Shown here piece by piece: positions 13,301-50,200 of a stretch of 64,000 nucleotides of DNA. The notes below the pieces were generated by a model, which was not told the DNA's origin, did no database searches, and was given only the letters and a program-made list of their open reading frames with translations. The position numbers were made by a program, and so were the translations under genes. Position 1 is the first letter of the stretch, and each line of letters opens with the position of its first letter. Origin of the DNA: Bilabrum cf. latius (taxonomy: Eukaryota); contig OZ237748.1 of the NCBI GenBank assembly GCA_965178125.1, positions 372,001-436,000 of the forward strand. The letters run 5' to 3'.

Positions 13301-15195
13301 TGGATCTCGGGACAGTGCTGCCACCCGAGGAACTGGAGACTGGGCTCATCGGCGGGCGAGGTCGAGTGATAGAGGCAGGGCCGGCCAAGCGGCGCCCCGG
13401 CCGCGCGTCTGTCTTTGCTGCCGGCCAGCTGCCCGACTCTGCCTCGATGGCCGCGATCGAGGCCGGGCGCATCCCTCCGCTGAACCCGCCAGCGGGCAAG
13501 GAGGGGGCAAGTCAAGGAGTCAACGGCTTCGTGTTCGCGGTGGAGGTAGCACGGCGGGGGGCGAGGGGCGCTGGCGGGGCAGGGGCAGAGGGAGGGCCTG
13601 GGTCTGGTGGTCGATCGCCCGTGCGGCTGGCGCTGAAAGGGCTGCTTCCCTTCGCGCAGGGCAACTCGTACTACTCAGACCGCGTGATTGGGCAGCACCG
13701 TGAGGAGTGGAGGGTGCCTCAGGTGGTGGGCGGGCATAGGAACATCGTGCCCGTTAGACACGCGTTCTTCGGGTCCTCCATGCTGGTGCTGCCATGGGTG
13801 GGTCCCATGTTCATGGAGGCGGGGCAGATCGTGGGGCGCACCACCTGGCTGGCCATGCCCCTGTACCCCACTAGCCTGAAATCGGCTGCAGGGGATGTGC
13901 CGTGCACGGGGCCCAGGGAAGCGGCGCTGTGGCTGCTGCAAGCACTCGAGGCGATCCAACACATGCAGACGATGGGGGCCGTGCACCGCGACATCAAGGC
14001 GGACAATTTCTTCCTGGCTGGGGATGGACGGCTTGTGCTGGGCGATTTCGGGGCGGGCTTTCTGCTCTTCCATGGGGGCAGGGCAGCCGAGCTTGAGGTG
14101 GAGTTCCAGGAGAGGCAGCGGCAGCAGGCGCAGGAGCACGCGGCCGCCATGGGTGCAGGTGCAGGTGCAGGGGCGGCTGATCCCGAGATGGGGGCAGCAG
14201 GTGCAGCAGCAGGGGGCGATGAAGAAGAGGAGGAAGAGGAAGAGGAAGAGGAAGAGGAAGAGGAAGAAGCTGGCGAGCTGCAGATCGTGCCCGGGGAGGC
14301 ATTCGAGCAAGCTGGTGAAGGGTCCAAGCTTACTGGCTTTATTACTTCCTTGATCAATGAAGGCGGTGCGGGAGACAGCCGATCCCCTGAGCTAATGGCC
14401 ATGGGCAAGCTGAAGGTCACCAAGGACTCGAGAGGAAAGCCGCTCGAGACGCTGGCCCAGGCCTACGAGATGTCCGATGCGTGGGCCGCGGCCAAGACCG
14501 TGTGGGGGCTGCTGGCGCAAGGGGACGCGGCTGCGTCTGCCCTCCCCGGCAACGACAGGCTGTACAAGGACTCTGCCATCCCGAGGCTGCCCCAGGCCGG
14601 CAGGGAGCTGGAGGCGATCCTGAGGGGGCTGCTGCAGTCGCTGCCCAGCAAGCGGCTGCGGCCCGAGAGCGCCATTGCCGCCCTGCGAGCCCTGCTGTAC
14701 GGGCCCGGGAGCTGGGAGCAGGTGCAGCGGGCGGCTGGGGAGGGTGAGGCTGCGAGCGGTGGGATGATGGGCGGGTCCAGCGGTGGAGGCTCTGGGGCTG
14801 CTTCGGGGGCGGGAGCGGGGGATGCTGCATCGGCGACAGCAGCGGGTGCTGGAGCGGGTGGGTCTGGGCTGGTGGAGCTGGTCCAGGGGCAGCTGTGGGA
14901 GTGCGCGGCTGTGGATGCGGGGCGCAGGGGGGTGGAGGGCGTGCCTGCTGCTGGATTGTGCTGGGGCCTGGCGGGGCCTGCTCCCATGGTGCGGCTGCCG
15001 ATCGGGGAGGAGGCGTATGGGGCGTTCGGGTGGGGCGAGCGGCGGTGCGTCCCAGGAGAGGCGAGCCTGTGGGACCGGTTCCTGCGGCGGGAGGTGCTGC
15101 TGCGGGGGGGCGGGCCGGATGGGTCTGCGGCTTGCATGGCCAAGGACTGCAGGAAGCTGGTGGAGGCGATGAGGAGGTTCGGGCAAGGAGAGTGA
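1306..15195 (+). CDS. Ankyrin repeat - coiled coil - protein kinase (array copy 1), about 1035 aa
   Basis: Exons 1306-1307 (AT), 1499-1592, 1970-2068, 3044-3142, 12226-12324, 12481-15195, all GT-AG. Ankyrin motifs TPVH/TPLH. Kinase motifs SQGVNGFVF, LALK, HRDIKADN, DFG, SPE, SDAW. Ends in TGA. One in-frame TAG in exon 1970-2068. Confidence 0.82.
5090..8925. repeat. 128-bp tandem satellite, about 30 units
   Basis: ORF-track periodicity of 128 (6892, 7020, 7148, 7276...). Homogeneous from about 6840, more diverged before that. Confidence 0.92.
9720..11690. repeat. 325-333-bp tandem array, 6 units
   Basis: Periods 325, 332, 325, 333, 329. A 7-bp insertion alternates between units. Confidence 0.92.
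12649..12995 (+). repeat. 42-bp coding repeat (QVQAKDQQLRERDA x8), coiled coil
   Basis: Eight KDQQLR units of 14 aa (two heptads) in the kinase exon. Confidence 0.9.
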
Positions 15196-15763: not shown

Positions 15764-18700
15764 ATGTGAGAAAGTTTGTGTTTTTATTTTAGTACCGGTA
15801 CAACTTGTAGAGTCTGATACTGCTCCGTAGCAGCTGTTGTATCCTCGCTACCTATGGTGCGTTGAGATCTCCTCGTGGATTCGATCCATATGAGTCTGCT
15901 TGACGCGGTACATACAATTAGTTGGTAAATGGTCAAGTTTTGCAGGGGAGACGCACTTCAATCAGCAGCCGAGTATGGCAAGGTGGACGACCTGAGGGCT
16001 TGCCTGGATTCGGGGACGGACATCGAATCCAAAGATAGCGTGAGATTGAGCTATACTGGTCGAGCTGTTGGATTCCTTCTTGGGTTGATATAAGTGTTAA
16101 GACCGGAAGGTCCACGTACAGGCGGTTTTGTAGCTCACCAGTGATGGTATGAGGGCGGTCCACCATTGGATACCTGTTGCACGCCATCGATTCATCGGCG
16201 AGCTAAATCAGGGGGCGAGTCGGGGGAGCTAATTTGATTCAGGTGTAATGGTGTGCGTACATGACAGTGACATACACCTCTTCTTCTGCATGCTCTCCGC
16301 GCCTGGCCATCAGCGGATCTTCATCCCCCGCCACCATGTTGCTCCCTTCCCTCGGGGTCTGGTTGCCATCCACGGCTACCCACCAACGGTTTTATCTGTC
16401 TTGGTGCATCGCAGTATGGTAAGACAGCAGCATGGAAGGCTGCATACAATGGCAAGACGGACTGCCTGTAGCTGCTCATCGAGAGGGGCGCCAACGTGAA
16501 CGCTGCCGACATCGTGAGAGAGATAGGCTACCTGGCCAACAGGACTGGTTGTAGTCGATACTTGGGATATTTGATTTGGCTTGAGAGATTATTATACTGT
16601 TTGTATCCGTTCAAGTGGCTAGCATAGCATCTAGCTAGCTCCTCGTCGATCGGACCGGGCCTCCGAGCAGGTGCTCCCCGGTGGTGACTGACGAGGTCTC
16701 AAGGGGAGGCGCGATTTGTTGTTGATGTCTTGTGGATGTGGTCGATTCTATGTTGGTATGACTAAACCATGCATGTCTTCTAGTATTGGTGCTTAGTTTA
16801 GCCATCGTTAAGCTCCGCCCAGCTGTCCCACGTGGCTCTCGTGATGGGTGGGGCAGGCGGGTGGTGGCTTGCGGGATGCGGATTCACCCGAGTTGTGTCT
16901 GGGTTTAGAAGGCAAATGCCAATTACATGGTTGACTTTGTGTATTTCCTTTGTTCAAGGTTGGTTGTCGATCGATGGCAGCTCCCCGGGGGAAGACACGA
17001 TTGGCCTGTTTGACGAGTATCAGCTCGACCCTCATTGCCTGGCTTGCGCCACCGATGGGCAGAGTTCAACGAGTTTGCATTAATCAGTACATAAACACTA
17101 TGACATAAATGTGATTAATTTGAGTCATACGTCTTTCAGGACCTGCAAAGCGGTCGAGGCGGCTGCTGCCCGTCCCCCCAGAGGGCCCCTCGGCTATCTC
17201 AGCCCCCAGGCGGATTCAGAGGCCGGGACCGGTCCCTGTCGCGATGAAATGGCTTGATAGGAAGATTAGTATATGTTCGGATTCGTATTTCAGTGATTTT
17301 GTCCCTCAAGCGGGAATCGATCCGGGGACTGCGCCCCTAGGGCCCAGAGCGACTCCCACCGGTCCGTCCCAAAGCCCTCCCACTACACCCCCATCATTCG
17401 CCCCATGCCCACACACATCCACACCCACACCTTACCCAAACACCCCCCCTGCTTACCCCCACTCCCTGTCTCCCATCCCCCCACCACAGTTTGGCCGCAC
17501 ACCTGTTCATGAGGCATCCGCGAATGGGCACGATGAGTGCCTTCGATTGCTGCTTGAAAATGGGGGGGAAGCGAACGCGGTGCACGAGGTGAGAGAGAGA
17601 GAAATATGTTGAGGGAGAGGTTGGTCTTGTGTGTGCGTGCTTGTGTGTTGGATGGATGTGTGTGTGTCTGTCCGGCTTGGAATTGCCCGCTCCCGGGTCC
17701 AAGACCCGCTGGGAGGTCCCGGGCAGGGTCAGCTGTTCATTCGCGAACGTTCAGCTGATACTGGCGTGATCCTGTGATCGACCGGCGAGGTGTCATTCCG
17801 GTTCGAGTCTACACTGGGGCAAGAGAGAGATCAGCCTCTGCGCTAGACAGGATTAGCAAAGAAATGCAGAAGCAGCCTAAGCCAGTAGCTTTCTTCTCTG
17901 GCACGGCCTGCGACGCTAAGATTCGACGCAGCTCAGGGCACAACGAGTCCGCTCCTGCTGCGTCGACGGATTGAGCCTGGACACTTGTGCGCGTATCTCG
18001 GGCTGTAGGTATGGTATGGTATCATGGTTTGGACCCATCGGCGTGATTTTGGGAGCGCAATACTGCGATTATAATCGACTCCGGACTCGATTGGTCGCAT
18101 TGGATCGCCATTCCGAAGCGATTGGTTGCTTTCAAAAGGTTCAGAGAGCTTCGTTCTTGTCAAAATGTGGATGATTATCTTTATTAAGTCACCTTATGCC
18201 GGATTGACCGGTTCCGGAAGGAAGTAGCTGCACTCGCCTGGCCAAGCCATGGCTGGTGATCGATGGTCCATTCGATTCTCAAGCGGAGAACAGTTGGCTC
18301 TGCTAGCAGGTCCGATTGTTATCATCATTGTGTAGTTCGCTCTTTTGGCATGTTCTTTGAGGCGGGGGGATGTTTCAAATTGGGAGTCGGAGCGCTCGGA
18401 GAGTTCCGGTTTGATCGGACCGTGGAGATGTGGCGCTGGAATCGTGGCACCTTGTTGGGAGCACGCGCACCAACCAGCGCAGAAAGAGAGACGCCTGCAA
18501 CACAAGGTAACACGCACTGAGTGAAGAAGGCGTACAACGGAAGTTGATAAATAGCTGACTGTGCATATCCAGCCGAGTAGGTCCTCCTGCTTTGGATGCT
18601 TGCGAGAACAGTGGGCGTCGATGAGCGTTTAATTGGCGATGAAGCGATACATGATGCATGATTTAGGTTTATTGTATGGCGATTCTGATGCTTGGCGGGC

Positions 18701-22955: not shown

Positions 22956-25900
22956 ATGTAAGATAGTGTGTGATAATATTTTGCCACCGGTACAACTTGT
23001 TGAGGCTGATGCCGCTTCGTAGCAGCTTTTGTATCCTAGCTATGGTGCGTTGAGATCTGCTCGTGGATTTGATCCACATGAGTCTGCTTGACGCAATATA
23101 TACAATATTTTGGTAAATCTCCAAGTTTCGCAGGGTAGCCGCACTTCTCATAGCAGCTAAAAATGGCAAGGTGGACGACCTGAGGGCCTGCCTGGATTCG
23201 GGAACGGACATCGAATCCAAAGATAGCGTGAGATAGAGCTCTACTGGTCGAGCTGTTAGATTCTTTTTTTGAGTCTTTATTAATGTGAAGACCTGAAGGT
23301 CCACGTACAGGCTGTTTCGGAGCTCACCAGTGATGGTATGATGGCGATCGACCATTGAAGACCTGACGCACGCCATCGTTTCATCGGCGAGCTACATTAG
23401 GGGGCGATACGGGGAAGTTTATTTGATTCAGGTGTAATGGTGTGCGTACATGACAGTGACATGCACCTCTTCTTCTGCACGCTCTCCGCGCCTGGCCATC
23501 AGCGGATCCTCACCCCCCGCCACCGCGTTGCTCCCTTCCCTCGGGGTCTGCTTGCCATCCACGGCTTTCTACCAACGGTTAAAACTTTCTTTGGTGCATC
23601 GCAGTTTGGTCGGACAGCTGCATACTGTGCTGCACGCTATAGCAAGACGGACTGCCTGTAGCTGCTGCTCATCGAGAGGGGCGCCAACGTGAACGCTGCC
23701 ACCAACGTGAGAGAGAGAGGCTGCCTGCCCACCAGGGGGGGTTGCAGGTGGTACCTGGGTTATTCGAGTTGGCGTTAGAGCTTATTATACTATTTGTACC
23801 CGTTCAAGTGGCTGACACGACATCTAGCTAGCTCCTCGTCGATCGAGCCGGGCCGGACCCCCGAGGCTAGTGCTCCCCTGGTGACTAATGAGGTCTCAAG
23901 AGGAGGCGCGATTTGTTCTTGTTGTATTGTGGATGCGGTCGATTTCATGTTGGTATGATTAAATCATGCATGTCTTGAAGTAGTGGTACGAGGCACATTG
24001 GCCATGGCTCAGCTCCGCCCGGCTGGACCACCTGGCTCCCGTGCTGGGTGGGGCAGGTAAGTGGTGGCTTGCGGGATGTGGATACACAAGGATCGTGTTT
24101 AGTTTTTCGAGGCGAATGCCAATTAAATGGTTGACTTTGTATACTTTCTTTAGTTTAAGGTTGGTTGTCGTTCGATGGCAGCTCCCCGGGGGAGAACAGG
24201 ATTGGCCTGTGTGACGAGCATTCATCTCGATCCTCATTGCCTGGTTTGCGCCTCCGATGGACGGAGTTCAATGGATCTGCACTGATCAGTACATACATAG
24301 TACAACCTAGGTGTGATTAGTTTGAGTCATTTGTCTTCCAGGACCTGCACAGCCGGCGAGGCGGCCGCTGCCCGTCCCCCCAGAGGGCCCCTCGGCTATC
24401 TCAGCCCCCAGGCGGACTCAGAGGCCGGGCTCGGTCCCTGTCGTGATGGAATGGCTTGATAGGATGATTGGTGTATGTTTGGATTGGTTTTGATTTTAAT
24501 GATTTTGTCCCTCGAGCGGGAATCGATCCGGGGACTGCGCCCCTAGGGCCCAGAGCGTCTCCCACGGGTTCATCCCGACGGCCCCCTCACACCCCCATCA
24601 CCTGCCCCATACCCACACACATCCACACCCACACCCACCCCCCCTGCTTCCCCCCACCCCTTGTCTCCCATCCCCCCACCGTAGTATGGCAATACACCCG
24701 TTCATGTGGCATCAGTGAGTGGGCACGATGACTGCCTTCGGGTGCTGGTTGAAAATGGGGGGGACGCGAATGCGGTGGATAATGTGAGAGAGAATATAAT
24801 ATGTCTGAGTCAAAGCACACATTACCCAACTACAACGACCACCCCAAGAGGCAGAGAGATAAATATGTTGAGGGACAGGTTGATTTTGTGTGTGTGTGCT
24901 TGTTTGTTGGATGGGTGTGTGTGTCTGCCCGGCTTTGGATTGCCCGCTCCCGGGTCCGAGACCCGCTGGCAGGCCCCTTCGTGGTGCTCCCGCTGCGTTG
25001 ACGGATTGGGGCCGGACACTTGTGCGCGTATCTCGGGCTGAAGGCATGGCATGGTATCATGGTTTGGATTCATCGGCTCGATTTTGGAAGCGCAATTCCG
25101 GGATCTGATTCGACGCCGGATCCGAATGGTCGCATCGGATCGCCGATCGGGAGCGATTGGTTGCTTTCAAAAGGTTGTTTTCATTGTTGTGTAATTCGTC
25201 CTTTTGGCATGTTATTTGAGGCGGGGGGACATTTCCAGCCGAGTAGGTCCTCCTGCTTTGGTTGCCTGCGAGAACAGAGGTCGTCCATGAGTGTTTGTTC
25301 GGCAATAAAGCGATGCCTGATGTGGTTTATTGTATGGTATTTATAATAAATCGAACTTGTTTGGGCCAGATCGATGGTGGCTTTGATGCTTGGCGGGCCT
25401 TGGACTGGTGTCTGCATGATGCAACTGGATGCTCTGTGTATGGTATCCTGCCTTCCTACCAGCATGGCACCTGAACTCTGTTGAATCAGCCGTCTCGAAC
25501 GGCACTGGCTAGTCTTAAGAAGCAATGGATTCGTTGCAATGTAAGTGTATCTGGTATTGCACTTATGCCTGTGGATTGCTTGGATTGTGACCAATGAGCT
25601 GCACATCCGGCGAGGCGGCCGCTGCCCGTCCCCCCAGAGGGCCCCTCGGCTATCTCAGCCCCCAGGCGGATTCAGAGGACGGGACCGGTCCCTATCGTGA
25701 TGAAATGGCTTGACAGGAAGATTGATGTATGTTTGGACTGGTTTTGATTTTAATGATTATGTCCCTCGAGCGGGAATCGATCCGGGGACTGCGCCCCTAG
25801 GGCCCAGAGCGTCTCCCACCGGTCCGTCCCAGCGCGCCCCCCACACCCCCAGCACCCACCCCATGCACATACATCCACACCCACAGCCTCCCCAAGCACA

Positions 25901-29117: not shown

Positions 29118-32100
29118 ATGTAAGGTAGTATCTTATTATGTTTGGCTACTTGTGCAACTTGTAGAGGCTGATACCGCTCTGTAGCAGCTGTTGGTACAGT
29201 GTTATATCCTGGCTACCTATGGTGCGTTGAAATCTCCTCGTGGTTTCAATCCAAATGAGTCTGCTTCACGCGATCCGTACAATACTTCCGTCGATCTTCA
29301 AGCTTCACAGGGGAGATGCGCTTCGATTAGCAGCCGAAAATGGTGAGGTGGACGACCTGATGGCCTGCCTGGATTCGGGAACGGACATCGAATCCAAAGA
29401 TAGCGTGAGCTTGTGAACGTCTGACCGGGCTTTTGGATTCCTCCTTGATTGGATATGAATACTAAGACCCGAAGGTCCCCGCACAGGCTGTCACGGAGCT
29501 CACCAGTGATCGGATGACGGCGATCCACCATTGGGGACCTGTTGCACGCCATTGATTCATCGGCGAGCCAGGGCGGGGGGCAACTTGGGGAAGCTGGTTC
29601 CCTTTTGTGTTGCTGCTGCTATATGTACATGGCAGTGGCATGCACCTCTTGTTCTGCTGGCACTCCGCGCCTGGCCATCAGTGGATCCTCATCTCTCGCC
29701 ACCAGGTTGCTCACTTCCTTCGGGGTCTTAATGCCATCCACGGCTTCCTACCAACGGTTTAAGCTTTCTTCAGTGCATCACAGGATGGTTGGACAGCAGC
29801 TTTGTTGGCTGCGTGGAAAGGCAATACGGACTGCCTGTCGCTGCTCATCGAGAGGGGCGCCAACGTGAACGCCGCCGATATGGTGAGAGAGATAGGGAGG
29901 CTGCCTGCCCAACAGGGAGGTTTATAGTCGGTACCTGGGATATTCTAGTTGGCTTAAGAATTTATCATACTGTTTGTACCCGTTCAAGTGGCTAGTATAG
30001 CATCTAGCTAGCTCCTCGTCGATCGACCCGAGCCTCCGAGCATGTGCTCCCCGGTGGTGACTGACGAGGTCTCAAGGGGAGGCGCGATTTGTTCTTGCTG
30101 TCTTGTGGACGGGGTCGATTGCATGTTAGTATAGTTTGACCATGTATGTCTTCAAGTATTCGTGCAAGGTAGTTTTGCCATCGCTCAGCCCCGCCCACCT
30201 GGCCCACCTGGCTCCCGTGCTGGGTGCGGCAGGTGAGTGGTGGCTTGCAGGAAGCGGATTTACCAGAGTTATGTCTGAGTGTTCGAGGCGACTGCCTATT
30301 GCTTGGTTGACTTTGTATACTTCCTCTGTTGAAGGATGGTTGTCGATCGATGGCAGCTCCCCGGGGAAGGACAGGACTGGCCTGTGTGACGAGCATTCAG
30401 CTGGATCCTCATTGCCTGGCTTGCGCCTCCGATGGGCAGAGTTCAAGGAGTTTGCACTGATCCGTACATACACAGTATGACATAGATGTGATTGATTTGA
30501 GTCATTTGTCTTTCAGGACCTGCACAGCCGGCAAGGCGGCCGCTGCCCATTCCCCCAAGAGGGCCCCTCGGCTATCTCAGCCCACAGACAGATTCAGAGG
30601 CCGGGACCGGTCCCTGTCGTGATGGCATGGCTCGATAGAAAGACTGGTGAATGTTTGGATTGGTTTTGATTTTAGTGAGTTTGTCCCTCGAGCGGGAATT
30701 GACCCGGGGACTGCGCCCCAAGGGCCCAGAGCGACTCCCACCGGTCCATCTAAACCCCCCAACACCCCCATCATTCGCCCCATGCCTGCAAACACCCACA
30801 CCCGCACCCGCCCAAAGCACACCTCCAGCTCCCCCCCACGCCCTGTCTCCCATTTCCCCACCGCAGAATGGCCGCATACCCGTTCATGCGGCATCCTACC
30901 ATGGGCACGATGATTGCATCCGAATGCTGCTTGCAAATGGGGGAAACGTGCATGCGGTGGATGAGGTAAGAAAAAGAGAAGTATGTTGAGGGAGAGGTTA
31001 GTCTTGTGAGTGTGCGCGCTCGTTTGTACGATGGGTGTGTGTGTGTGTCTGTCCGGCTTGGGATTGACCACTCCCGGGTCCAAGACCCGCTGGCAGGTCC
31101 CTTCACGGTGCTCCCGCTGCGTTGACGAATTGGACCTGGACACTAGTGCGCGTATATTGGGCTGTAGGTATGGTATGGTATCATAGTTTGGATTCATCGG
31201 CGTGATTTTGGGAGCGCAATCCTGCGATTAGATTCGACTTCGGAACCGAATGGTCGCATCGGATCGCCATTTGGGAGGGATTGGTTGCTCTGAAACAACC
31301 AAACGAGGTTTGTTCGAATGAACTTGTGCATAGATCTAGTTTGTCTGGTCAGTTCGTGCATTGACGGGTTGACCGGTTCTGGAAGGAAGTAACTGCGCTC
31401 GCCTGGCCAAGCCTTGGCTAATAGTCGATGGTCCATTCGATTCTCCAGCGGAGAGTGTTTGGCTCAGTTGTCGGGGCTGATTATTTTGATTACAGTGTGT
31501 TTTGGCCTTTTGGCATGTTGCTGGAGGCGGTGGGTCATATCCAATCGCATAGAGCGTCCTGCCGAGGTTGCTCGCGAGAACAGTGGGCGTCCATGAGCGT
31601 TTGCTCGGCGATGAAGCGATGCCTGATGCATTATTTGGATTTGTTGTTTGGCATCAATGATGAATCGTGCGATTGATGCTTGACGGGCCTTAGGCTGTGT
31701 GTCTGAACGGCTCTGTCCAGTTCGTTCTGGCGAAGCTTCGCTGGCATCGGATCACCCAAGATCGTGATTTTGGGCTGCTTCACCAGTGGAAATCAATCTG
31801 CTTGGTTTGTTTGTTTGTGGTTCATGTATTGAATTACTTGGTGCTCGTTGAGCTTGCTGACAGCGCAACTGGATGCTGTATGATCAGTTTTCTGCAGTCG
31901 TTTGAGCACAGCACCTGAACTCTGTGGATGCAGCTCGTCTTAATCGGCACTGCCTGGTCTAAAGTCGCAATGGATTTAAAGCAATGAATGTGTTCTAGGT
32001 ATTATACGGATGCAATTGGTTTGCTTGGATTGCCGTTAGATATGGTTTCGCAGTGCACCTGGCGCTACCTCTTAGTCGTCGGCTCGCTGCTGCCGGACCG

Positions 32101-32831: not shown

Positions 32832-34117
32832 GGTCTAGGCTGGTGCTTCCACTGGAGGCAGCCAAGCTGGGTGGGCACGACGATTGCGTGAATCTGCTGC
32901 AGGAGGCCTAGGGATGAGGTCTAGGCTGGTGCTTCCACTGGAGGCAGCCAGGCTGGGAGGGCACGATGATTGCGTGAAGCTGCTGCAGGAGGCCTAGGGA
33001 TGAGGTCTAGACTGGTGCTTCCACTGGAGGCAGCCAGGCTGGGAGGGCACGACGATTGCGTGAAGCTGCTGCAGGAGGCCTAGGGATGAGGTCTAGGCTG
33101 GTGCTTCCACTGGAGGCAGCCAGGCTGGGAGGGCATGACGATTGCGTTAAGCTGCTGCAGGAGGCCTAGGGATGAGGTCTAGGCTGGTGCTTCCACTGGA
33201 GGCAGCCAGGCTGGGACGGCACGACGATTGCGTGAAGCTGCTGCTGGAGGCCTAGGGATGAGGTCTAGGCTGGTGCTTCCACTGGAGGCAGCCAGGCTGG
33301 GTGGGCACGACGATTGCGTGAAGCTGCTGCAGGAGGCCTAGGGATGAGGTCTAGGCTGGTGCTTCCACTGGAGGCAGCCAGGCTGGGAGGGCATGACGAT
33401 TGCGTGAAGCTGCTGCAGGAGGCCTAGGGATGAGGTCTAGGCTGGTGCTTCCACTGGAGGCAGCCAGGCTGGGTGGGTACGACGATTGCGTGAAGCTGCT
33501 GCAGGAGGCCTAGGGATGAGGTCTAGGCTGGTGCTTCCACTGGAGGCAGCCAGGCTGGGAGGGCATGACGATTGCGTGAAGCTGCTGCAGGAGGCCTAGG
33601 GATGAGGTCTAGGCTGGTGCTTCCACTGGAGGCAGCCAGGCTGGGAGGGCATGGCGATTGCGTGAAGCTGCTGCAGGAGGCCTAGAGCGGTACGACCAAA
33701 TGTTAACAGGAGAAATCGTTAACGGTTGCAACCTCTTCGACGTTGCAGTTCGATGCACCAAATCTTTGAATCCATTGTGCACAGCAAGATGCAGCCTGCA
33801 GGTGGTGGTGCACGCTTATTGGATAGCTTACCCAAGTCATTACCTGGATTAGAGGCATATGTACCCAAGTGGGCACAATAGAACTCAGAGGTGTTGGACG
33901 TGGTAGTCCTGTTGCTCAATCTGTCGATGTCGTAAACCGACGGTGGTTTACGGCTTGCTGTTGCTCTCCTGTGCAAGATATCAGAATCTGACCTCACAAG
34001 ATTGGGGCCCTCAGAAATTATGTAAATTGACATTAAGTAAATTAAGTAAATTAAGGGCCGAAACACATATATATGTACAAATTATGGTCTTAATATGAAT
34101 ATCTATGGATATTTTGA

Positions 34118-36721
34118 TCACGTAGCACCCGCAACAGGCAAATCCGCGGACTCCTGAGCTCCAGTGGCCGCACCATCTGTGTCGATCTCGACGTCGCCAA
34201 GGCCAAGTTGGCACCATTCGTCCTGCTCACGTATACCTCCACCATCTAGAACCTTACGCAGGTCTTCTCGCATCTCCGGTGCTTTTGCACGAAGTCCGCT
34301 GCGCGACATCCATCTCGATGCCCAGTCTTCGATGAATGTCGTCGGGTTTGCCCGAAGTAGCATGACATCCTGGACTGTACTGATGCGTCGGCTTCCCTGC
34401 CGCTGATTGCTGCACACAGCAGCGAGCATGGAAAACTTTCTTTCCATGTTCGAGCTGTTGAGGCGTAGGTTGGCAACATCGCGCATGGCCTCGGCGTAGT
34501 GAAGCAACTGCTCCTGGTCGGACCCTGTAAGCTTGTCCTTCACATCCTGCACATATTTCCTCCACGCTTTACCGACCTCACAGGAACGATCAAATAGCAC
34601 TATCTTGTTCTCATGCAGGATGCGCGCGGTTTCCACAGCAGTTTCAAGCATGTCTGCGTTGAGCTTCCGCCACTTCGCAATCTCACGAAGTGCAACCAGA
34701 GCTGCATCACGCTCGTTCCTATCAGCCTCAGAGTGAACTGGCTGCACCGGGCTGCCATGCTACAAGCAACCGTAAATTGTTTTCATGGCCTGGAAGTATC
34801 GTGCCTTTCTCTCAGTGGTTCTGCTCCACGACTTGTGGGTCTGATCGCAAGCTTCCTTGACCCCTCGCACCAGCTCGTCAGCCTTCTCCCGCGACACACC
34901 GTCCTTCGTTAGGTCCTATTTAGCGCTCTCCAGTTCTGCAGCACTTGCTTCGGCTGATTTTCCCACCCTCTCCAAGAGCTTTGTAACTTTATGGACGGAG
35001 GACAGCAAGTAGTCGTCCCCTTCCACAAGCCGGGACACCTCGTTGGTGTACTGAAGCTTGGAGTGGAGGTAGTCGAACTAGGCAATTGCCTGCCGCATGC
35101 CAGCTCTGACGTCATCGTCGGAAGCCTTCAGCAATTCACTGTCCTCTGTCAAAGCAGTCGGGTTCTTGACACCAAGCATCACCAAGAAGCCTGGGAGCTT
35201 TCCACTCGTCTTGTCCTTCCGCTTGGCTTGAATGACCATGCACACCCGCCGCAGCTTGATCAAAGCAGCGTACTTATTCTATTTTAGATAGTCGATGAGT
35301 CGTGCTAACAGGCCCCACCGAGTATCTGGAAAGAAGAGCATTGGCTTCCGGAGCTTCGCGCGAGTCAGCTCAGCCATCCGATCCTTCATCCCGGAAACGC
35401 GGAAGATGTTCTGCAGTCTAGCATAGAACTCCTTGAGAAATGGAACCTTCGACCGCAGATTTGACGCAAACCTGGCAATGCCATGATTTGCGCAGACCAC
35501 GATATCGTCAACTGAGAGGCCAAATGCCTCTGTTGCAGTCCGGTTGTCATCAGCGCCGTCTGCCGCGATGCTCACCACTTGATCCTTCGATACTCCAACG
35601 TGCTCTAAGGCCTTTTCAAGGAGCACTTTAGCATCAGCACCTCTAGAACCCTCAACTAACTGCAGACTTACCAGGAAGTCCCTACCAGTTGAAAGGCTGC
35701 GGATCGACACTCCGAACACTTTGGTGGTGGATGACTACCCACCCTTGATGTTGCCCCCGTCGAACTCCATCTGAAGATACTCGCCTTGCAAGCTTTCTCG
35801 CAGAATGGTAAGCATGCCATCTTTGTCATCAGAGACAGCTTCTACTCGCCGATTCCTCATTGTAGACTGCGACACTGCTCCTGCAGCCTGAGCTTTTCGG
35901 ATGATGTCCGGCCACGCTCTGATCTGCAGGAGCCTAGACGCGCCCGCGTCCGAGTTTGACTTCATCCCGACCTCAAGGATTATTCGATAGAGCACACCAG
36001 CTGCAATACCCTGGCTCTGCTTGGACATGCTAGATAGCACGGTCGTCTACCCTCCTCCGCGGAAGTGACGCGCTATGCCGCGCGGCGGCACGTGCAGCTC
36101 TAGCTACTTCCCTTCCGGCATTTTCTGGTTCTTTTTGAACACAGAATCGAAAGCAAATATCCTGCCCTCTGCGTAGACCAGCCCATCATTAACTGGTTTC
36201 ATACCATGTTTCTCTGCCAGAGCGTTCGGCACAATGAACACAGCACCAGAGCTACGCTCCAGAATGCTGAACATGTCATCATATCTACTGCGAATAGGCG
36301 GCCTTCGCTTAGGATTGGCCCAGATATTTCCAGCCAGCATCGCCTCAGATTTTTCGACCACGTGATACCTGGCATGCACGGCGGCGAGAGCTTGCTGTCG
36401 CAGCAGCAGCGCTGTCTAGGATTTTTCATCACCATGACCACCCACGACCTCCTTGCAAGGCAAAACAGGCTTTCCGTCAGAGTCATACTTGACATTCAAC
36501 CATTTCTCCTTCGCTAATTTGCGGTCATCGTCCATCATCGCTTCAAGTTCGGCTTTGAGGGCTGCTGCGGTTAGCGGGATGCACTTCTCTGCTAACTTCT
36601 CATAGTGAGATATGAGGTCCCTATAACTAGGCCCCGCAGCCTTCTATGAACCATTGGAGACACTAGTGCGCGATTTAACTCTTCTGGAAGTGGTTTTAGG
36701 TGCCCGCCGGGACCGTTTCAT
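34118..36721 (-). CDS. hAT-family DDE transposase, 867 aa if TAG is sense
   Basis: One frame from ATG 36721 to TGA 34118 joins five ORF-track fragments, with 9 internal TAG and no TAA/TGA. Motifs MEFDG, IAADGA, CANH (CxxH), DTRW, SSNMERKFS. Confidence 0.88.
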
Positions 36722-36865
36722 GCCTGCCACGTAGCCTGCGCGAAGTGCAACTGACCAATACGCACAAAAAAAATCATCCAATTAAAAAACAAAGGGCACC
36801 AATGAGTTTATCTACTTAATTACAAACTAACGTTGCATAAATTTATACTCGTAATATCCTCCTTA

Positions 36866-38256
36866 ATGGTTTTTCGGAGCCTCGATTTACTAAATGGCTT
36901 CGGCGAAAATTAACTAAATCTGATTTTCTGTTTTGTAAGGTCTGTATCAGATTCGTTCGCACCTGAACTTGGGACACATGCCATCAAATTAACTGATGAG
37001 TAATGTCGCGTAGCGTATTCGATCAGCCTTGAACGTGGGAAGTAGCTTGCAGGATGGGTGCTGTCCAGGCTCGGTGTTGACAAGCTGAAAATGTCACGCC
37101 GAGCCATGGCCAATGTGCTTCAGATGTTGCGATTGACTTATTATCACCAACCATACTGAAGTAAGCCCGGCTTGAGGTCCCTCCAGGCCTGGTGGGTCGA
37201 AAATCGACGTTGCCGCCTTGTGTTGTGGACAAACTGTTCGATTCGGTAGGAAATTTTGCCGAAGCAGGACATCCGCTCACCATCAAGTAGATCAAAAGTA
37301 TGGTAAATGCGTTGGTATGTCGTGCGGCTGAGCTCAACGCGCAGGTGCAGAAGAAGCGAGGCAGGCGGAAGCAGGCGGCAGTGGATGTGATGGTAGTAAA
37401 GCTGTCAGATGACTGGGTTCGCAAGCAGATTGCCTAGCGTGATTAATCTTTACAACGAGCAGGAACGATCGAGCACGGTGGGGACGTTGTATCTTAGGCG
37501 GTTGTGTCCAGATGCTTCGAGAAGCTGGCAGCGGTCGCTGAGGAGTTCAACATTGTTGGCAAGCACCAGGTGCCGGATGATACCACTGCAGCTGCAGCGA
37601 ATGCAGAGCACAGTAGTGAGAGAGCCCTTGCACTGCCAGGACCAGCGACTGAGGCAGCCGTGACATGGGTCGTATCCGGTCGCAAGCGGAAGAGGCGGAG
37701 GGGCTAGCGAGGCAAGTCGAAGATGGTGCCTCTTGCCGAGCAACGAAAGAAGGTTGGCGGGTCCTTTACAGCCATCACTTTTGACCAAGCGCAAACACTG
37801 TCGATGAAGTAGGTGCAGATCGACATGATCGACCGAATCGAAGAGAGCGGACTGCTCGAGAGTGCCAGTGGGCGGGGGGCTGCCCGAGGCGGGCAGACTC
37901 GAGCTTTGAGGCACAGCACTGCCGCGATGCAAGACCCGGGCGGTTCCATAGCATCTATGGACTATCCAAAGGCAAAACAACTCGGGCGGGCTGAGGCACG
38001 AGTAAAATAGCTGGAGGAGCAGCTCGAGCAAGCGACCACGAAGCGCCGTGTCAAGGCGAAGCTCACCGTACAGCACGTCAACACTGTATCGCGGGCGCAA
38101 AACAGCTTGAGCGAACTGCAATAGTCGATTACAACAGAGGGTGGGGCCGGTGATCGCAAATTTCAGCAGAAACTGGCTGCATTGTAGGAGCTCCTTGACA
38201 AGGCTTGCTCGGCTTGGCAAGACCATTTGGAGGTCCTGCGCGAGGTCTCGGGATGA
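36866..38256 (+). CDS. Second gene of the transposon: basic/coiled-coil protein, possibly Myb/SANT-like, with one frame discontinuity
   Basis: ATG 36866 frame is open (TAR read as sense) to about 37159. An overlapping frame is open 37081-38256 (TGA) with GHPLTIK[TAG]IKSMVNAL, GRKRKRRRG and RVK[TAG]LEEQLEQ. Joining them needs an indel or small intron at about 37085-37155. Confidence 0.55.
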
Positions 38257-40319
38257 CTGAAAGTCCCCACCGAAACATTTGCTTTATTTGGTTATTATCT
38301 AGATATTCTGATGATTGCAAGCTCGAAGCATGGCAGCATCCCGATTACTTGGGTAGTTCAATAGTTGCACTTGGGTGCGCCGAGGTCACTCTTTTGGCTT
38401 GATCTGAGCTCCAAGCCTGAAAATCAGCAGGGTATGATGTTGTTAGCTCACACAGTATCATGATTACAAATATACTTTTTGTGTTGAGAGCGTGAACAGC
38501 TGAGGAAAGCTGCAATGCATCGAACCAGAGCTACTGTATAGCATTTTTCCAAAGGCGTGCTGCCCGAATCGGAGGCAAACAAGGCTGTAAAGCATTCAAG
38601 ATATCTTGGCTTCTACATTTCCCCAAAAGAATGTAAAGATACCAATATTTAGAGCTCACGATGCAAAATCTTGTGAGACTGACCGTGATCGGATTAGAGC
38701 TTTGCGTGGAAAGTTCTTGAGATTCGAAGAAAGGTACAGGATCTGTTCAGAATATGTCCGTTCGCTCTAGGGATGAGGTCTAGACTGGTGCTTTCACTGG
38801 AGGCAGCCAGGCTGGGAGGGCACGATGATTGCGTGAAGCTGCTGCAGGAGGCCTAGGGATGATATCTAGGCTGGTGAGGAGGAGGATCCCGCGGGGGGCG
38901 GGTCCGTGGACGTGGTGGAGGCGTGGGTGCGGGAGCAGCGGCTGCGGCTGTGCGAGGCCGAGCACCGGCGGGCCCCTGTGTCGCGGGCCGTGCTGGTGGG
39001 TCACCGGGCTGCCCTCGAGGCGGAGGCAGGGGAAGCAGTCGCAATCGGATGCCGCCCCTGCGAATGGCTCGAAGTCTGCCCCTGAAGGCGCCTGCAAGGG
39101 GCAGACGAGGGGCAGAAGGGGGAAGGGGTGGGTGCAAACGGGGAAAAGGTGGGGGCGGAAGTGGAATGGGTGAGCGGCTAGCCGTGGCGGGCAAGGTAGG
39201 GGGTGAGTCCAGCGATGACGATTACGACCCAGTCGACGCATCGAATCGGCCCGACCCCCTGCGCTGGTCCTCTCGAAGATCGACCCGAATGAGGGTGCTC
39301 TCGCGACAGGCAGCGGAATACATAGAGACGTTTGCGAGAGCCATTGCGGAGGACTGGGGGATGGCTCCGCGACGGGAGGGCAGATGACGAGGGGGGCGCG
39401 GGGGCCTCAATGGCGGGCGAGGAGAACGGAAAGGGTGTGGCTGCTGCTATGGGGGATGAACACAATGGCAGTGATGTCGCCCTCGATACGATGCGCGAGT
39501 AAATTCCCAATTTCGAGGCGCTGATCGATGACGAGGGGGAAGACGCGGAGGACGCGCCTCTGGCGGCGAAGGGGGCGGTGGCTGTGTTGGCCAGCAAGCA
39601 GCTCTAGGCGTTCGACGCGATCGGAGGGAAGACGCCCCCCTTGCTGCCAGACCCAGAGGAAGGCATCTGAGCGCCCTGCCAGCTCTGGGGTGGGGGGGGG
39701 AGCAACGGCCTAGCGTGGCCTGCCAGGGCAGCAGTGGGGTGGCTGGACCCGTTCGGGGTGATAGTCCGCACTGCCTCGCCCGGTACGCGGTGCCCATGCG
39801 GTACGTGTGCTGGATATGCAATTGAACAACAGGCTCCGCTCACGCGCATGCGGATGCAGCCGCGAGCGCGTCTGGACGGGCCAGCTAGAGAGGCTCCTTT
39901 CGCCCGAACCAGCGCCATCCAGCATCTCATACGGCCACAATCGAATGAACACACCATAAAGAGCAACATATCAAACATCTGCCATAGAAGCTGTAGGAGG
40001 AAACATTTGCCGGGCCCGCACGTTTCGGCTGCAGTGGGCGAGACAGTCGCGCCGCGCCGCCGGCAAATTTTCTGCCGCCGATCAAATTCCGGCGCAATCG
40101 ACGCATACGGTCACAAAGAATAGGATAGGAGCTTTTTTTCGCATAATTTCTCCCCGCCCGCTCAAAGACGCCCAGACGTGATCCGGGCGCCCCGCCGGTC
40201 ACGCGCGCGGCCAAATTAGGTTCCGCTCACGCTATTGCGCGGCGCTACCGAATCCGGCCTATTGTCCATCATTCAGCCTGCTTGTAGGGCACTGGTTCTT
40301 ATTGTGATATCAGTTTGAG

Positions 40320-43300: not shown

Positions 43301-45981
43301 TGACATGAGTTTCTGCTTGGACCTTGTATAGAAGCATATGATCAAGTGTTTTTGTGGTATTATCCCTGATGTACTGCGCAACTGGATGTTGTGTGTGTGA
43401 TATCCAGCCTTCCTACCAGCATGGCACCTGCGGTAAGACTTGGGATCAGGCCCGACTGATTCCGAGTCGTTCGGGTCCTGGCGTGTGCTCCCAAGGCACT
43501 TCCCTTGGGGCAAGTGCTCGAGTGAAGGCTGAGAAGGAACACGCAGCGCCACAGATATAAAGATCTGGCCTTCGTATTATAACAAATCGGGACCAACTCA
43601 GTGGCAGCAGCCCGTCTCGATCCGTACTGGCTAGTCTTGAGCAGCAATATTTTTATTGCAATGTCTGTATATCTGGTATTGTACCAATGCATGTGGATTG
43701 CTTGCATTGTGATTAATGAGCTGCACAGCCAACGATACGGCCGCTGCCCGGCCCCCCAGAGGGCCCCTCGGCTATCTCAGCCCACATGCAGATGCAGAGG
43801 CTGGGCCCGATCCCTGTCGTGATGAAATTGTTTGATAGGATGATTAGTATATGTTTGGATGGGTTTTGACTTTACTGATTTTGTCCCTTGAACGAGAATC
43901 GACCCGGGGACTGCGCCCCTAGGGCCCAGAGCGACTCCCACCGGTTCGTCCCAAAGCCCCCACCACACCCCCAGCACCCGCCCAATGCCCACACACATCC
44001 ACATCCGCACCCACCCCAACCACACCGCCTGTCACCCCCGTCCCCTGTCTCCCATCCCCCCACTGCAGTATGGCTTCACACCCGTTCATGTGGCATCCGC
44101 GAATGGACACGATGACTGTCTTCGACTGCTGGTTGAAAATGGGGGGGACGTGCATGCGGTGACTGATGTGAGAGAGAATATAATATGTCTGAGTCAAAGC
44201 ACACACTACCCAACTACAACGACCACCCCAAGAGGCAATCGCACTGGGCAGGTCGATGTGAGAGAGAGAGAGATGTTGAGGAAGAGGTTAGTCTCGTGTG
44301 TGTGTGCTTGTGTGTTGGATGGGTGTGTGTGAATGTCCGGCTTGGGATTGCGCGCTCCTTATCGCCGTCCACCTGCGCGAAGTGGACTGTCAAGGCAGGA
44401 CTACGAAGAAGAGGACATGTTTCAAGTAGAGATACGGTAAGATCAAGACCACATTTTGTTGGAAAAGCACGGGAGATACTCCCGGGTCCGAGACCCGCTG
44501 ACAGATCCCTTCGCGGGGCTCTCGCTGCGATGAGGGATTGGGGCTGGACACTTGTGCGCGTATCTCGGGCTGTAGGTATGGTATGGTATCATGGTTCTGA
44601 CCGATCGGCGTGATTTAGAGTCTGGAATCCTGCGATTGGATTCGACTCCGGATCCGACTTGTTGCATCGGATCTAGATTTTTATTAGAAAAGATCGCAGA
44701 TCGGGAGCTAGTGGTCGGTTTGAAAAGGCCAAGAGAGGTTTTGTTCAAATGATACTATGGATAGTTCGAGTCGGCAGTTTGAGCATTGACTGATGGACAG
44801 GTTCCTGAAGGAGGGAACTGCGCTCGCCTTGGCTGGTGGTCGATGCTCCATTCGATTCTCAAGCGGAGATCGGGTGGCTCGGTTAGCGGGTCTGATTGTT
44901 TTCATTTTTGTCAAGTTCGCCCTTTTAGCATGTTGTTGGAGGCGGGGGGTCATATCCATCCGAGTAGATTTGCTGCTGTGGCTGCTCGCGAGACCAGTGG
45001 CCGTCCATGAGCGTGCGTGTATCAGATCTTGTAATGCGGCTTCCTGTACTCGTACCAGCGCGACATCTGAACTCTGTGGTAGCAGCCCATCTCGATTGGC
45101 ACGGGCTTATCTTGAGCAGCAATGGTTTCATAGCAATATACCTGTGTCTAGCATTGAACAGATGTCTTTGGATTGCTTGTTGCCATTGGACATGGTTTGG
45201 CAATGCACCTGGCGCTACATCACACTGTCTTTGACTCGATGCCGGACCCACGCACAAGACCGAGAACACCGGTGGCAGATGTGCTGCATGGATTCAGGCA
45301 CTTAAACGTGTCGACGGAATACTTGTGAGAGAGAATCGTGTTGGCTCATGACCTTTCAGAACCCTTCGATTCAACCGCAGGATGGAGACACTCCCCTCCA
45401 TGGGGCAGCGTACTAGGGTCACACCGCCTGCGCCACCATCCTCATGGAGGCAGGGGCCCGCAGGAACATCAAGAACAGCGTGAGCTACCCGAACTGCCTC
45501 GCAACAGCACTAATTATGCTTGTATCCATTGTGCTGCCTGATGAATCGATGGATGCTGTTAACGCTTATTCACCCGCTGTGCATCCCCCCACACCACACG
45601 ACCTGTCCTGTGCCCCTCTCCCTCGCTTTTTGGATGGAGCAGGATGGCAAGATTCCAGTCGAGTTGGCAGACTCTAACGGCAAGACCAAGACAACTGCTG
45701 CCATCCGGTCATGTATTACCTCTCGAGTCCTTAGAGCCCTTTGCTGGAGGAGGGCAGTGGAAGCAAAGAGAGATGCTGGGATGGTGTTTCAGGCAGCGAG
45801 TGAGGGGCGGCCTATGGAGCTGGCCAGGAGGCTGAGGCTAGGCAAGCTGGCTGGTGGGTTGGAGACGAAGGGAATAGCGATACATGGCAGTGGGAGCTCT
45901 AGGCTGGTGCTTCCACTGGAGGCAGCGAGGCTGGGTGGACACGACGATTGCATGAAGCTGCTGCAGGAGGCCTAGGGATGA
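40320..45981 (+). CDS. Ankyrin-repeat protein, copy 5 (two C-type exons)
   Basis: Exons 40320-40321, 40489-40582, 40962-41060, 42159-42257, 44069-44167, 45381-45479, 45643-45981. Confidence 0.8.
41699..41814. mobile_element. Short insertion, family 2
   Basis: Precisely interrupts tttcaggac|ctgcacag, no TSD. First 40 bp or so shared with the 18371 copy. Confidence 0.6.
42685..42855. mobile_element. Short hairpin-led insertion, family 1 (shortest)
   Basis: Same left end as the other copies. About 7 bp of host sequence (cctggcc) is missing at the site. Confidence 0.75.
43431..43594. mobile_element. Singleton structured insertion
   Basis: Interrupts ggcacctg|aactc with no TSD. Nested inverted repeats ttggga/tcccaa, cccga/tcggg, gcactt/aagtgc. 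Confidence 0.5.
44359..44478. mobile_element. Singleton insertion with subterminal hairpin
   Basis: Interrupts gctcccgggtccgag. gtccac...gtggac hairpin near the left end. ctcc on both sides. Confidence 0.45.
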
Positions 45982-47234: not shown

Positions 47235-50200
47235 ATGTAAGAGAGTGTGTGATAATACTTTGCCCCCGGTACAACTTGTTGAGGCTGATGCCGCTTCGTA
47301 GCAGCTTTTGTATCCTAGCTATGGTGCGTTGAGATCCCCTCGTGGATTCGATCCATATGAGTCTGCTTCACGCGATACATATAATATATTAGTAAATTTC
47401 TAAGTTTCGCAGGGCAGCCGCACTTCTCCCAGCAGCTAAAAATGGCAAGGTGGACGACCTGAGGGCCTGCCTGGATTCGGGAACGGACATCGAATCCAAA
47501 GATAGCGTGAGATAGAGCTCTACTGGTCGAGCTGTTAGATTCTTTTTTTAAGTCTATATTAATGTGAAGACCTGAAGGTCCACGTACAGGCTGTTTCGGA
47601 GCTCACCAGTGATGGTATGACTGCGATCCACCATTGGAAACCTGATGCACGCCATCGATTTATCGGCGAGCAAAATTAGGGGGCAAGTCGGGGAAGCTTA
47701 TTTGATTCAGGTGCAATGGTGTGCGTACATAACAGTTGCATGCACCTCTTCTTCTGCTGGCTCTCCGTGCCTGGCCATCAGGGGATCCTCGCCCCCCGGC
47801 ACCAGGTTGCTCCCTTCCCTCGGGGTCTGCTTGCCATACACGGCTACCCACCAACGGTTTTAAATGTCTTGGTGCATCGCAGTATGGTCGGACAGCAGCA
47901 TGGAGGGCTGCACGCTATGGCAAGTTGGACTGCCTTTAGCTGCTCATCGAGAGGGGCGCCAACGTGAAAGCTGCTGACACCGTGAGAGAGATAGGCTGCC
48001 TGGCCAGCAGGACGGGTTCGGGCAGGGTCAGCTGTTCGTTCGCGAACGTTCAGCTGATACTGGCGTGATCTTGTGATCGACCGGCGAGGTGTCATTCCGG
48101 TTCGAGTCTACACTGGGGAAAGAGAGAGATCAGCCTCTGCGCTAAACAGGACTAGCAAAGAAACAAAGAAGCAGCCTTAGCCAGTAGCTTTTTTCTCTCC
48201 CACCCACCCACGACTTGGCCAAAGGGGGGAGGCAGCCACGAGGGCTGCCTGGGGATGTAGTGATTTGTGTGAATTGATTGACCCATTGGCAGGGAGTCGT
48301 TTCCCTGAGACGACGGGGCGCACCGGCCGTGCCGGCAGGGGTCGCGGGAGGCGACCCAGTGGACCAGATGACTCCGAGGCGGGAGCCCACCCCAGGTCCT
48401 GTGCCCCGTCGCTCTCTTTCTCAGCGTAGGCGATACTTGGGATATTCTAGTTGGTTTGAGGGCTTAGTATACTGTTTGTACCCGTTCAAGTGGCTGACAC
48501 AGCATCTAGCTAGCTCCTCGTCGATCGAGCCGGGCCGGGCCCCCGAGCAGGTGCTCCCCGGTAATTGATGAGGTCTCAAAACGAGGCACGATTGTTTTTG
48601 CTGTCTTGCGGATGCGGTCGATGGTATGTTGGTATGATTTGACTATGTACGTCATATCGTATTGGTGCGCGGTAGTTTGGCCATCGTTCAGCCCCGCCCG
48701 GCTGGCCCACCTGGCTCCCGTGCTGGTTGGGGCAGGTGAGTGGTGGCTTGCGGGATGCGGATTCACCCGAGTTGTGTCTGGGTCAAGAAGGCGAATGCCA
48801 ATTAATTGGTTGACTTTGTGTATTTCCTTTGTTCAAGGTTGGTTGTCGTTCGATGGCAGCTCCCCGGGGGAGGACAGGATTGGCCTGTGTGACGAGCATT
48901 CATCTCGATGCTCATTGCCTGGCTTGCGCCACCGATGGGCGGAGTTCAATAAGTCTGCACTGATCAGTACATACATAGTATGACATAGATGTTATTAATT
49001 TGAGTCGTTTGTCTTTCAGGACCTGCACAGCTGGCGAGGCGGCCGCTGCCCGTCCCCCCAGAGGGCCCCTCGGCTATCTCAGCCCCCAGGCGGATTCAAA
49101 GGCCGGCACCGGTCCCTGTTGCGATGCAATGGCTTGATAGGAAGATTGGTGTATGTTTGGATTGGATTCGATTTTAATGATTTTGGCCCTCGAGCGGGAT
49201 TCCACCCGGAGACTGCGCCCGTAGGGCCCTGAGCGACTCCCACCGGTCCGTCCTAACGCCCCCCCCACACCCCCATCACCCGCCCCATGCCCACACACAT
49301 CCACACCCACACCCACCCCAAGCACACACCCTGCTCCCCCCCACCCCCTGTCTCCCATCGCCCCACCGCAGTATGGCGAAACACCCGTTCATGCGGCATC
49401 CGCGTGGGGGCACGATGACTGCCTTCGACTGCTGCTTGAAAATGGGGGGGATGTGAATACGGAGAACGAGGTGAGGGAGAGAGTCATATGTTGAGGAAGA
49501 GGTTGGTCTTGTGTGTGTCTGTGCTTGTGTGTTGGATGAGTGTGTGTGTCTGTCCGGCTTGGGATTGACCGCTCCCGGGTCCGAGACCCGCTGGCAGGTC
49601 TCTTCGCGGTGCTCCCGCTGCGTTGACGGATTGGGCCTGGACGCTAGTGCGTGTATCTCGGGCTGTAGGGATGATATGGTATTATGGTTTGGACCCATTG
49701 GCGTGATTTGGGGAGCGCAATCCTGTGATCGGATTCGACTACGGATCCGATTGGTCGCATCGGATCGCCGATCGGGAGCTATTTGTCGCAATGACAAGGT
49801 TCAAAGAGCTTATTCTTGTCAGAATGTGCATGGATCTATATGTTAGGTCGGGCATCGACGGATTGGCCAGTTCCGGAAGGATCTATCACTGCGAGATTGT
49901 TTCGTCATGGTCTACAGTCCTCGCTACGATGCTTGGCTCTCAGGGCGGTGGCGTATTGCCACCTTTGTAGACACGCGTGTGTCTAGTGACCGACCTGGCT
50001 CTATCTCCAGGTCATGTGCTAGTGGTCGGGCAGCCCTGGTATGGGCTGCCGAGTCACCATGCCTCACGGCTCTGCCAAGACTTGGATTGTCTTGGCGAAG
50101 CGGTTACAACCGCTAACAGCGCGGAGCAACAGCCCTGTATCGATTCACTGCCAGTCAGTGCTTGCCCAAGGGGGAAGGTGGGCGGGAAAAATGTGATGAG

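Follow-up and report, generated by a model that had tools for sequence, protein, structure and literature searches.

TAG codons within a transposase-like gene of Bilabrum cf. latius suggest that UAG is a sense codon, probably for glutamine

Introduction

Changes of the nuclear code are rare in eukaryotes, and the locus studied here raises the question of whether one of them is in use: which of the three stop codons still terminate translation, and what does a reassigned one encode? The stretch analyzed (hereafter the window) is 64,000 nucleotides (nt) of eukaryotic DNA from Bilabrum cf. latius (assembly GCA_965178125.1, contig OZ237748.1, positions 372,001 to 436,000 of the forward strand), with a guanine plus cytosine (GC) content of about 57%. 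On its minus strand lies a transposase-like gene whose long frame is interrupted by TAG triplets. We give a probability of about 0.62 to the reading in which UAG is a sense codon, most probably for Gln, while UGA and probably UAA stay terminators, that is, a UAG-only change and not the code of NCBI table 6. A first-pass annotation of this DNA had proposed that TAG, and probably TAA, encode Gln and that TGA is the sole stop.

Reading frames of the transposase-like gene and ORF2

We looked at the transposase-like gene, at a second open reading frame (ORF2) next to it, and at L001, a homologue of the transposase from a metagenome. The two window features are:

34118..36721, minus strand: transposase-like coding sequence, 867 sense codons and a TGA stop, with 9 TAG, 0 TAA and 0 TGA in frame; homologues are P0005-P0009 and L001
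37192..38256, plus strand: ORF2, 354 codons and a TGA stop, with 8 TAG and 1 TAA in frame; head-to-head with the transposase

The transposase frame starts with the ATG at 36721 and closes with the TGA at 34118-34120. Counting codons from this ATG confirmed the nine TAG and the lack of TAA and TGA over 867 codons that had been reported at first, as well as the absence of frameshifts, none being found in this gene or in the L001 frame. The TAGs are located at 36644-46, 36416-18, 36104-06, 36047-49, 35735-37, 35279-81, 35078-80, 34916-18 and 34760-62. When the frame is extended upstream to 36838, it takes in two more TAG and one TAA. For ORF2, the contiguous frame gives eight TAG and one TAA where nine and four had been claimed, and one of the contexts then cited for Gln, KLTDE*CR, sits at 36986 in a different frame and would need a splice that nothing supports. 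A longer TGA-free frame for this second gene (37081-38253) holds eight TAG and two TAA.

As an off-frame control, TAG, TAA and TGA triplets were counted in the reading frame and in both other frames of each ORF. The counts (TAG/TAA/TGA) are:

Transposase, 867 codons: in frame 9/0/0; other frames 10/5/15 and 11/10/34
L001, 935 codons: in frame 5/0/0; other frames 27/8/17 and 10/7/44
ORF2, 354 codons: in frame 8/1/0; other frames 3/3/6 and 1/0/11
Kinase exon of the host (see below), 890 codons: in frame 0/0/0; other frames 2/1/21 and 4/0/9

In the transposase, TAG is about as frequent in frame as out of frame, indicating that it is not counter-selected, whereas TAA and TGA, which together number 20 and 44 per 867 codons in the two other frames, are excluded. 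It is very unlikely that a frame of 867 codons is free of TAA and TGA by chance. In L001, the five in-frame TAGs compare with 27 and 10 off-frame, so that TAG is partly depressed there. When the three recoded ORFs were pooled (transposase, ORF2 and L001; 2,156 in-frame codons), TGA was found 0 times and TAA once.

Transcripts of the transposase

The window stretch is present in sequencing runs of nine studies, under eight organism labels and one 'marine metagenome' label. We compared the contigs of four runs (X1, X5, X7 and X8) over window positions 34000-50000. X1 and X8 are DNA runs. No run with this stretch is on record as RNA and the 'RNA?' status of X5-X7 is a guess; we regard X5 and X7 as RNA-like from splice joints and a T-run. 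Both runs show GT..AG joints: two of them, in X5, remove introns 41061-42158 and 47507-47882, and a third has its intron end at 44067 and its start at 42257 or 42258, as it fits either place. No joint of the RNA type was seen in X1 or X8. Furthermore, X5 has a loose end of 24 T that abuts 34090, as expected from the poly(A) tail of a minus-strand RNA, 28 nt past the TGA of the transposase. Together, the joints and the T-run indicate that X5 and X7 contain RNA, and they define the following transcript:

34090..36823, minus strand: unspliced transposase transcript in the RNA-like runs X5 and X7, with poly(A) at about 34090

X5 and X7 each cover the transposase with three unspliced contigs, 34090-34478, 34449-36406 and 36377-36823, which have one or two differences each from the window. 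The second of them spans seven of the nine TAGs with only two differences, so that at least five of the seven are unchanged in the RNA. With a 5' end at about 36823, the RNA is consistent with translation from the ATG at 36721, and the extra TAG and TAA triplets of the extended frame lie at or upstream of this end. The 3' untranslated region of this mRNA is about 28 nt long and is followed by the poly(A) tail. The depth of X5 is 630-767 over the transposase versus 21 and 4.9 in two bins of ORF2. This transposase/ORF2-region ratio is about 30-fold in X5 versus about 2-fold in the DNA run X1, whose depth is 72 over 34000-36944 and 35 over 36945-38508, with a contig break at 36944/36945. The two halves of the element thus differ in copy number.

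A further form, present in X5 and X7 and absent from X1 and X8, lacks 1,900 nt of the transposase (34477-36376), with the two sides joined. The missing piece has the ends CA..TG with a 2-nt microhomology and its loss shifts the frame; it is not a canonical intron, and the form may come from a derivative copy with an internal deletion or from a branch of the assembly graph.

Homologues of the transposase and the identity of the UAG residue

A full HMMER protein search with the transposase gave nine matches, namely four fragments of the window's own and five distant metagenomic proteins. In a word-index protein search, no homologue of similar length was found, and the only matches among shorter proteins were the window's own fragments. 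Scanning metagenome contigs with three query sequences gave one locus, L001, and nothing was found in the scans of genome contigs and viral contigs. The homologues are only 20-32% identical to the transposase; the blocks that it has in common with them are conserved. Neither the window protein nor P0005-P0008 matched any Pfam family, Dimer_Tnp_hAT and its RNase-H-like core included, and the intact catalytic motifs named in the first-pass annotation thus gain no support from Pfam. A profile search of the PDB returned nothing relevant, only chance matches to transcription activator-like (TAL) effectors (E >= 2.5e-4, 0 stretches), and the AlphaFold model has a mean predicted local distance difference test score of 38.8, too low for a comparison of folds.

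L001 is a contig of 3,225 nt (49% GC) that encodes a second transposase, 30% identical to that of the window (222 of 689 aligned residues are the same). Its ORF is open to the 5' end of the contig (1-3225), and the gene caller annotated only the last 294 codons, as P0006. The ORF closes with a TAA, followed by three further TAA within about 70 codons.

To look at the residue encoded by TAG, we used the alignments between these sequences. P0010, a 99%-identical copy of the window gene from another assembly, has Q at TAG codon 481 (...YLKQNKY...), the one TAG position that it bridges (1/1), and it ends exactly at the window's TAG 548. At two of the five TAGs of L001, the window has a CAG or CAA codon (Gln accounts for 3.6% of its aligned columns), and a third of these TAGs faces Q in P0005. 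Finally, P0007 and P0008 have Q at window TAG 206, in a weakly aligned stretch.

Altogether, we read UAG as a sense codon because two long ORFs, those of the transposase and L001, are interrupted by TAG alone and because polyadenylated RNA retains the TAGs. Gln is its most probable meaning because of the Gln of P0010 and the two L001 TAGs that face Gln in the window. To this extent the original proposal on TAG is supported. A tRNA-Gln with a CUA anticodon would then read UAG, and eRF1 would have lost or weakened its recognition of this codon. TAG would account for about 18-28% of the Gln codons in the less GC-rich mobile elements and would be nearly unused by the GC-rich host genes for compositional reasons.

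Host exons

Only two kinds of host gene are recognizable in the window, one gene with ankyrin, coiled-coil and protein-kinase parts and a family of ankyrin-repeat units arranged in tandem; accordingly, the Pfam matches of the 25 window ORFs translated with the standard code are limited to Ank and Pkinase. Protein collections were searched for annotated relatives of the host proteins and of the transposase, and none was found. The host exons that bear on the meaning of UAG are:

12520..15192, plus strand: coiled-coil and protein-kinase exon, ending in TGA; 68.7% GC, with 59 CAG and 11 CAA
40962..41060, plus strand: ankyrin exon B, 99 nt, TAG at 41016-41018; flanked by AG and GT, with an RNA joint 41060>42159 to exon 42159-42257
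47883..47981, plus strand: exon B copy, TAG at 47937-47939; acceptor given by the RNA joint 47506>47883 (GT..AG)
16415..16513, plus strand: exon B copy, TAG at 16469-16471
1970..2068, plus strand: exon B copy, TAG at 2024-2026
23605..23706, plus strand: exon B copy of 102 nt with an in-frame 3-nt insertion, TAG at 23659-23661
29784..29882, plus strand: exon B copy in which TCG (Ser) replaces TAG
45381..45479, plus strand: ankyrin exon A copy, TAG at 45414-45416; W, W, Y, F and M in the other copies

In total, 19 ankyrin exons of exactly 99 nt and one of 102 nt were found, all on the plus strand, in phase 0 and flanked by AG and GT. The eight that were tested against Pfam Ank (PF00023) all score 22.0-38.5 bits (cut-off 21.1), with alignments over the full 33-residue repeat that span the TAG position. 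As first noticed, exon B reads CTG TAG CTG in five of its six copies, with TCG in the sixth. Its TAG is position 19 of the ankyrin repeat, where the sister exons have Arg. Exon B, with its TAG in five of six copies, is spliced in RNA. The claim that host genes agree with a reassignment is nevertheless weaker than stated, given the pattern of evolution of the ankyrin exons, exon B included, and the residues that other host TAGs face (see below).

The 99-nt exons, one repeat each, are spread over 1970-62765 and grouped as B-C-(C)-A, a unit that recurs about every 6-7 kilobases (kb). The intron upstream of exon B is more conserved among copies (p=0.13) than exon B itself (p=0.19). Each ankyrin unit ends in a fragment that is very similar to part of the metagenomic protein P0016 and lacks a kinase domain (21700-22900, 27850-29050, 38850-40050 and 45950-47150). 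These four fragments differ by 1-nt indels and look degenerate, and the ankyrin array may be partly degenerate as well. P0016 itself was the one match, a weak one, of a protein search with the kinase, and is 41% identical to the window's kinase tail. A language-model cluster search with the kinase returned generic kinase clusters only.

Alternative explanations

Several observations weigh against a sense UAG read as Gln. ARAGORN found 0 tRNA genes within the 64-kb window. The automatic label of X5 is 'RNA? (probably DNA)'. None of the six aligned window TAGs faces Gln in L001, which may stem from a lineage other than the window's. Among host sequences, the ankyrin exons have ratios of nonsynonymous to synonymous differences (pN/pS) of 0.96 for exon B, 0.90 for exon C and 0.60 for exon A, and in a neutral simulation of the host exons the probability of seeing no new TGA or TAA was 0.053; these exons could be expressed pseudogenes in near-neutral evolution. 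Where exon A has its TAG (45414), the paralogues have W, W, Y, F and M, and in one of the degenerate kinase-tail fragments a TAG is aligned with GAG. P0016 is an ORF of 573 amino acids without TAG, and the kinase exon, as the first-pass annotation had itself cautioned, uses no TAG or TAA among 70 Gln codons. This last zero weighs little, since off-frame TAG is also rare in the exon (2 and 4 per 890 codons); about three in-frame TAGs would be expected without selection, and their lack is mostly compositional.

We then considered that UAG could be leaky or ambiguous, a suppressor tRNA reading it often enough while it still stops some genes according to context, for example its closeness to the poly(A). 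This would demand very efficient read-through, with nine suppressions in one ORF of 867 codons, and the equal frequency of TAG in and out of frame implies no cost of this kind; moreover, no window gene was seen to end in TAG. Such a code would nevertheless account for GC-rich host ORFs that do without TAG, like the kinase exon and P0016, and for the short 3' untranslated region of the transposase mRNA, which recalls what PMC12005148 reports for organisms with context-dependent stops. In addition, an ORF derived from the 86-nt satellite of the window ends in ...CAG GAG GCC TAG GGA TGA, where either stop would serve. On balance, we consider a leaky UAG unlikely.

Under a second alternative, the code is standard and the TAGs arose by plain nonsense mutation, chiefly from CAG, both in transposon copies that are dead and in an array of pseudogenes that are expressed. 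Where copies differ by TAG versus CAG, the change is indeed a single C/T transition, and several features of the host sequences fit decay, namely the near-neutral evolution of the exons, the 1-nt indels of the kinase-tail fragments, which belong to the same repeat units and whose TAGs derive from GAG and CGG as well as from CAG, and the lack of TAG in the intact kinase exon. We looked at the stops themselves with a single-step nonsense model that uses each ORF's own codons and takes every TAG as a former CAG, a choice that favors decay. Over transition/transversion ratios of 1-20, the probability that nine of nine stops are TAG is 0.003-0.01 for the transposase, and that of five of five is 0.006-0.009 for L001. 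Decay would have to produce TAG and no other stop in both ORFs, which are independent and 867 and 935 codons long, without a frameshift in either. The transposase keeps 11 CGA and 11 TGG codons and has not a single TGA. Decay would also have to be reconciled with TAGs common to near-identical copies in four differently labeled runs, and with an abundant, polyadenylated mRNA. Neither does the mutation spectrum of the window's satellites help it: changes from consensus to variant number 50 for C>T plus G>A versus 45 for T>C plus A>G, so C>T is not in excess; its rate is 0.032 at CG, 0.0125 at CHH and lowest, at 0.005, at CWG. As there is no CWG excess, no mutational drive from CAG to TAG is visible. 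We hold decay to be improbable, a little more so than a leaky codon.

If both TAG and TAA encoded Gln, with TGA as the only stop (NCBI table 6), TAA should be met in frame as a companion of CAA. The transposase has 5 in-frame CAA and L001 has 15, and neither has a TAA. The product CAA x TAG/CAG predicts about 2.0 TAA for the transposase, 7.3 for ORF2 and 9.4 for L001, versus 0, 1 and 0 observed. The single TAA of ORF2 (0 in the 867 + 935 codons of the other two, 1 in its 354) is a point for table 6, and so are the ends of the window ORFs, since all three examined (transposase, ORF2 and kinase) close with TGA, as had been stated, and no TAA terminator was seen within the window. L001, on the other hand, terminates in TAA, and the earlier claim of TGA as sole stop rests on those three ORF ends. 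An in-frame TAA is also present in three of six copies of the exon upstream of B if the sole upstream ATG is the start; these TAAs precede a conserved CAG that may be the true acceptor. The deficit of TAA and the TAA terminator of L001 make a UAG-only change fit better than table 6, which we consider very improbable, and neither the extension of the reassignment to TAA made in the first-pass annotation nor its TGA as sole stop is supported.

Two further candidates were tried and rejected: RNA editing from UAG to CAG, as the RNA-like contig over seven TAGs differs from the DNA at two positions only, and CWG methylation that makes only TAG from CAG. The latter was the single coherent way of saving the decay model, and the satellite spectrum speaks against it as the main cause.

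Comparison with known codes

With UAG as Gln and the other two codons as stops, the window most resembles the known UAG-only codes, those of Iotanema spirale and of two phyllopharyngean ciliates. In Iotanema spirale (Fornicata), UAG encodes Gln, and UAA and UGA are kept as stops (PMC5304391). The window is alike in that UAG is the only one in frame, with Gln as its probable meaning, that UGA is a terminator, and that UAA is seen as a terminator at the end of L001. It differs in its GC content of about 57%, its GT..AG introns of 1-3 kb, its large satellites and its DNA transposons, and in that mobile elements and a single family of repeat genes, not conserved genes, provide the evidence. Nothing links the window to fornicates.

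The two phyllopharyngean ciliates, Hartmannula sinica and Trochilia petrani, have UAG reassigned to Gln with UAA as the preferred stop (PMC11687900). As is probable here, UAG alone has changed to Gln and another stop codon is retained; the three window ORFs, in contrast, all end in TGA. The long introns, satellites and transposons of the window are not like ciliate macronuclear DNA. The UAR=Gln code of table 6, used by ciliates, Dasycladales and Hexamita, has in common with the window a TAG read as Gln and TGA as a stop, and differs from it by the one TAA in 2,156 in-frame codons and by the TAA that ends the homologous element L001.

In a third type, that of Amoebophrya sp. ex Karlodinium veneficum, the code is ambiguous, and about half of the genes have in-frame stops, of all three kinds (PMC12005148). 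This is also a marine eukaryote in which in-frame stops persist in transcripts, and UAA and UAG are thought there to be Gln; in the window, unlike what is described for this species, TGA and TAA are excluded from long ORFs. The presence of all three stops in frame, typical of Condylostoma and of this Amoebophrya, was thus not found here (TGA 0 and TAA 1 of 2,156).

An uncoupling of UAG from UAA is documented in few lineages only (PMC5304391, PMC11687900). Our search of the literature turned up no UAG-only code for GC-rich marine algae or comparable organisms, which is not proof of absence. We therefore put forward, tentatively and at less than even odds, that a UAG-only (Gln) nuclear code arose independently in a GC-rich, intron-rich eukaryote that is neither a ciliate nor a fornicate, with the reassigned codon heavily used in mobile elements and almost absent from GC-rich host genes. 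If true, the reassignment may have been caught at an early stage, or may be masked by base composition, and standard annotation would miss it. Its confirmation would add a lineage outside ciliates and fornicates, and would show that a reassigned stop can escape notice when GC-rich genes make little use of it. For this organism, the standard code would then give wrong gene models, wrong transposon annotation and wrong calls of pseudogenes, an effect that could be wide because sequence of the same organism is present in runs with eight organism names from nine studies.

The insertion and other features of the window

The transposase and ORF2 are carried by one insertion into a satellite:

33686..38764: 5.08-kb insertion into the 86-bp satellite, carrying both ORFs; the satellite register breaks off at about 33686 and resumes at about 38765

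A CTAG on either flank (4 bp) looks like a 4-nt target duplication. The ends of the insertion match at 8 of 11 nt only, and a search for an inverted repeat at these ends gave none that is convincing. hAT transposons follow a rule of 8-nt target duplication, which the 4-nt duplication does not fit; neither an 8-bp target-site duplication nor short terminal inverted repeats were found. The motifs DGG, ADG, C..H, TRWG and ER.FS of the transposase resemble what we take to be hAT blocks, and the language-model features of P0007, an intact homologue, are closest to BED/hAT clusters (0.92-0.94). We keep 'hAT-like' as a lead only. The ORF2 protein, rich in Lys and Arg and helix-like by eye, has no family match in Pfam.

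The 86-nt satellite is located at 19985-21720, 32748-33685 and 63170-63358. Its sequence goes back to an ankyrin repeat, of which it represents the second half (...LEAARLGGHDDCVKLLQEA TAG GGA TGA); since 86 is not divisible by 3, the frame changes with each successive unit. The satellite periods of the window are 86, 125-128, 253 and 325-326 nt. No match to any Rfam family was found in the window. Four large tandem arrays, at 5099-8922, 9732-11689, 51291-57150 and 57387-60498, with periods of 128, 325, 125/253/378 and 326 nt, respectively, make up roughly a fifth of the window.

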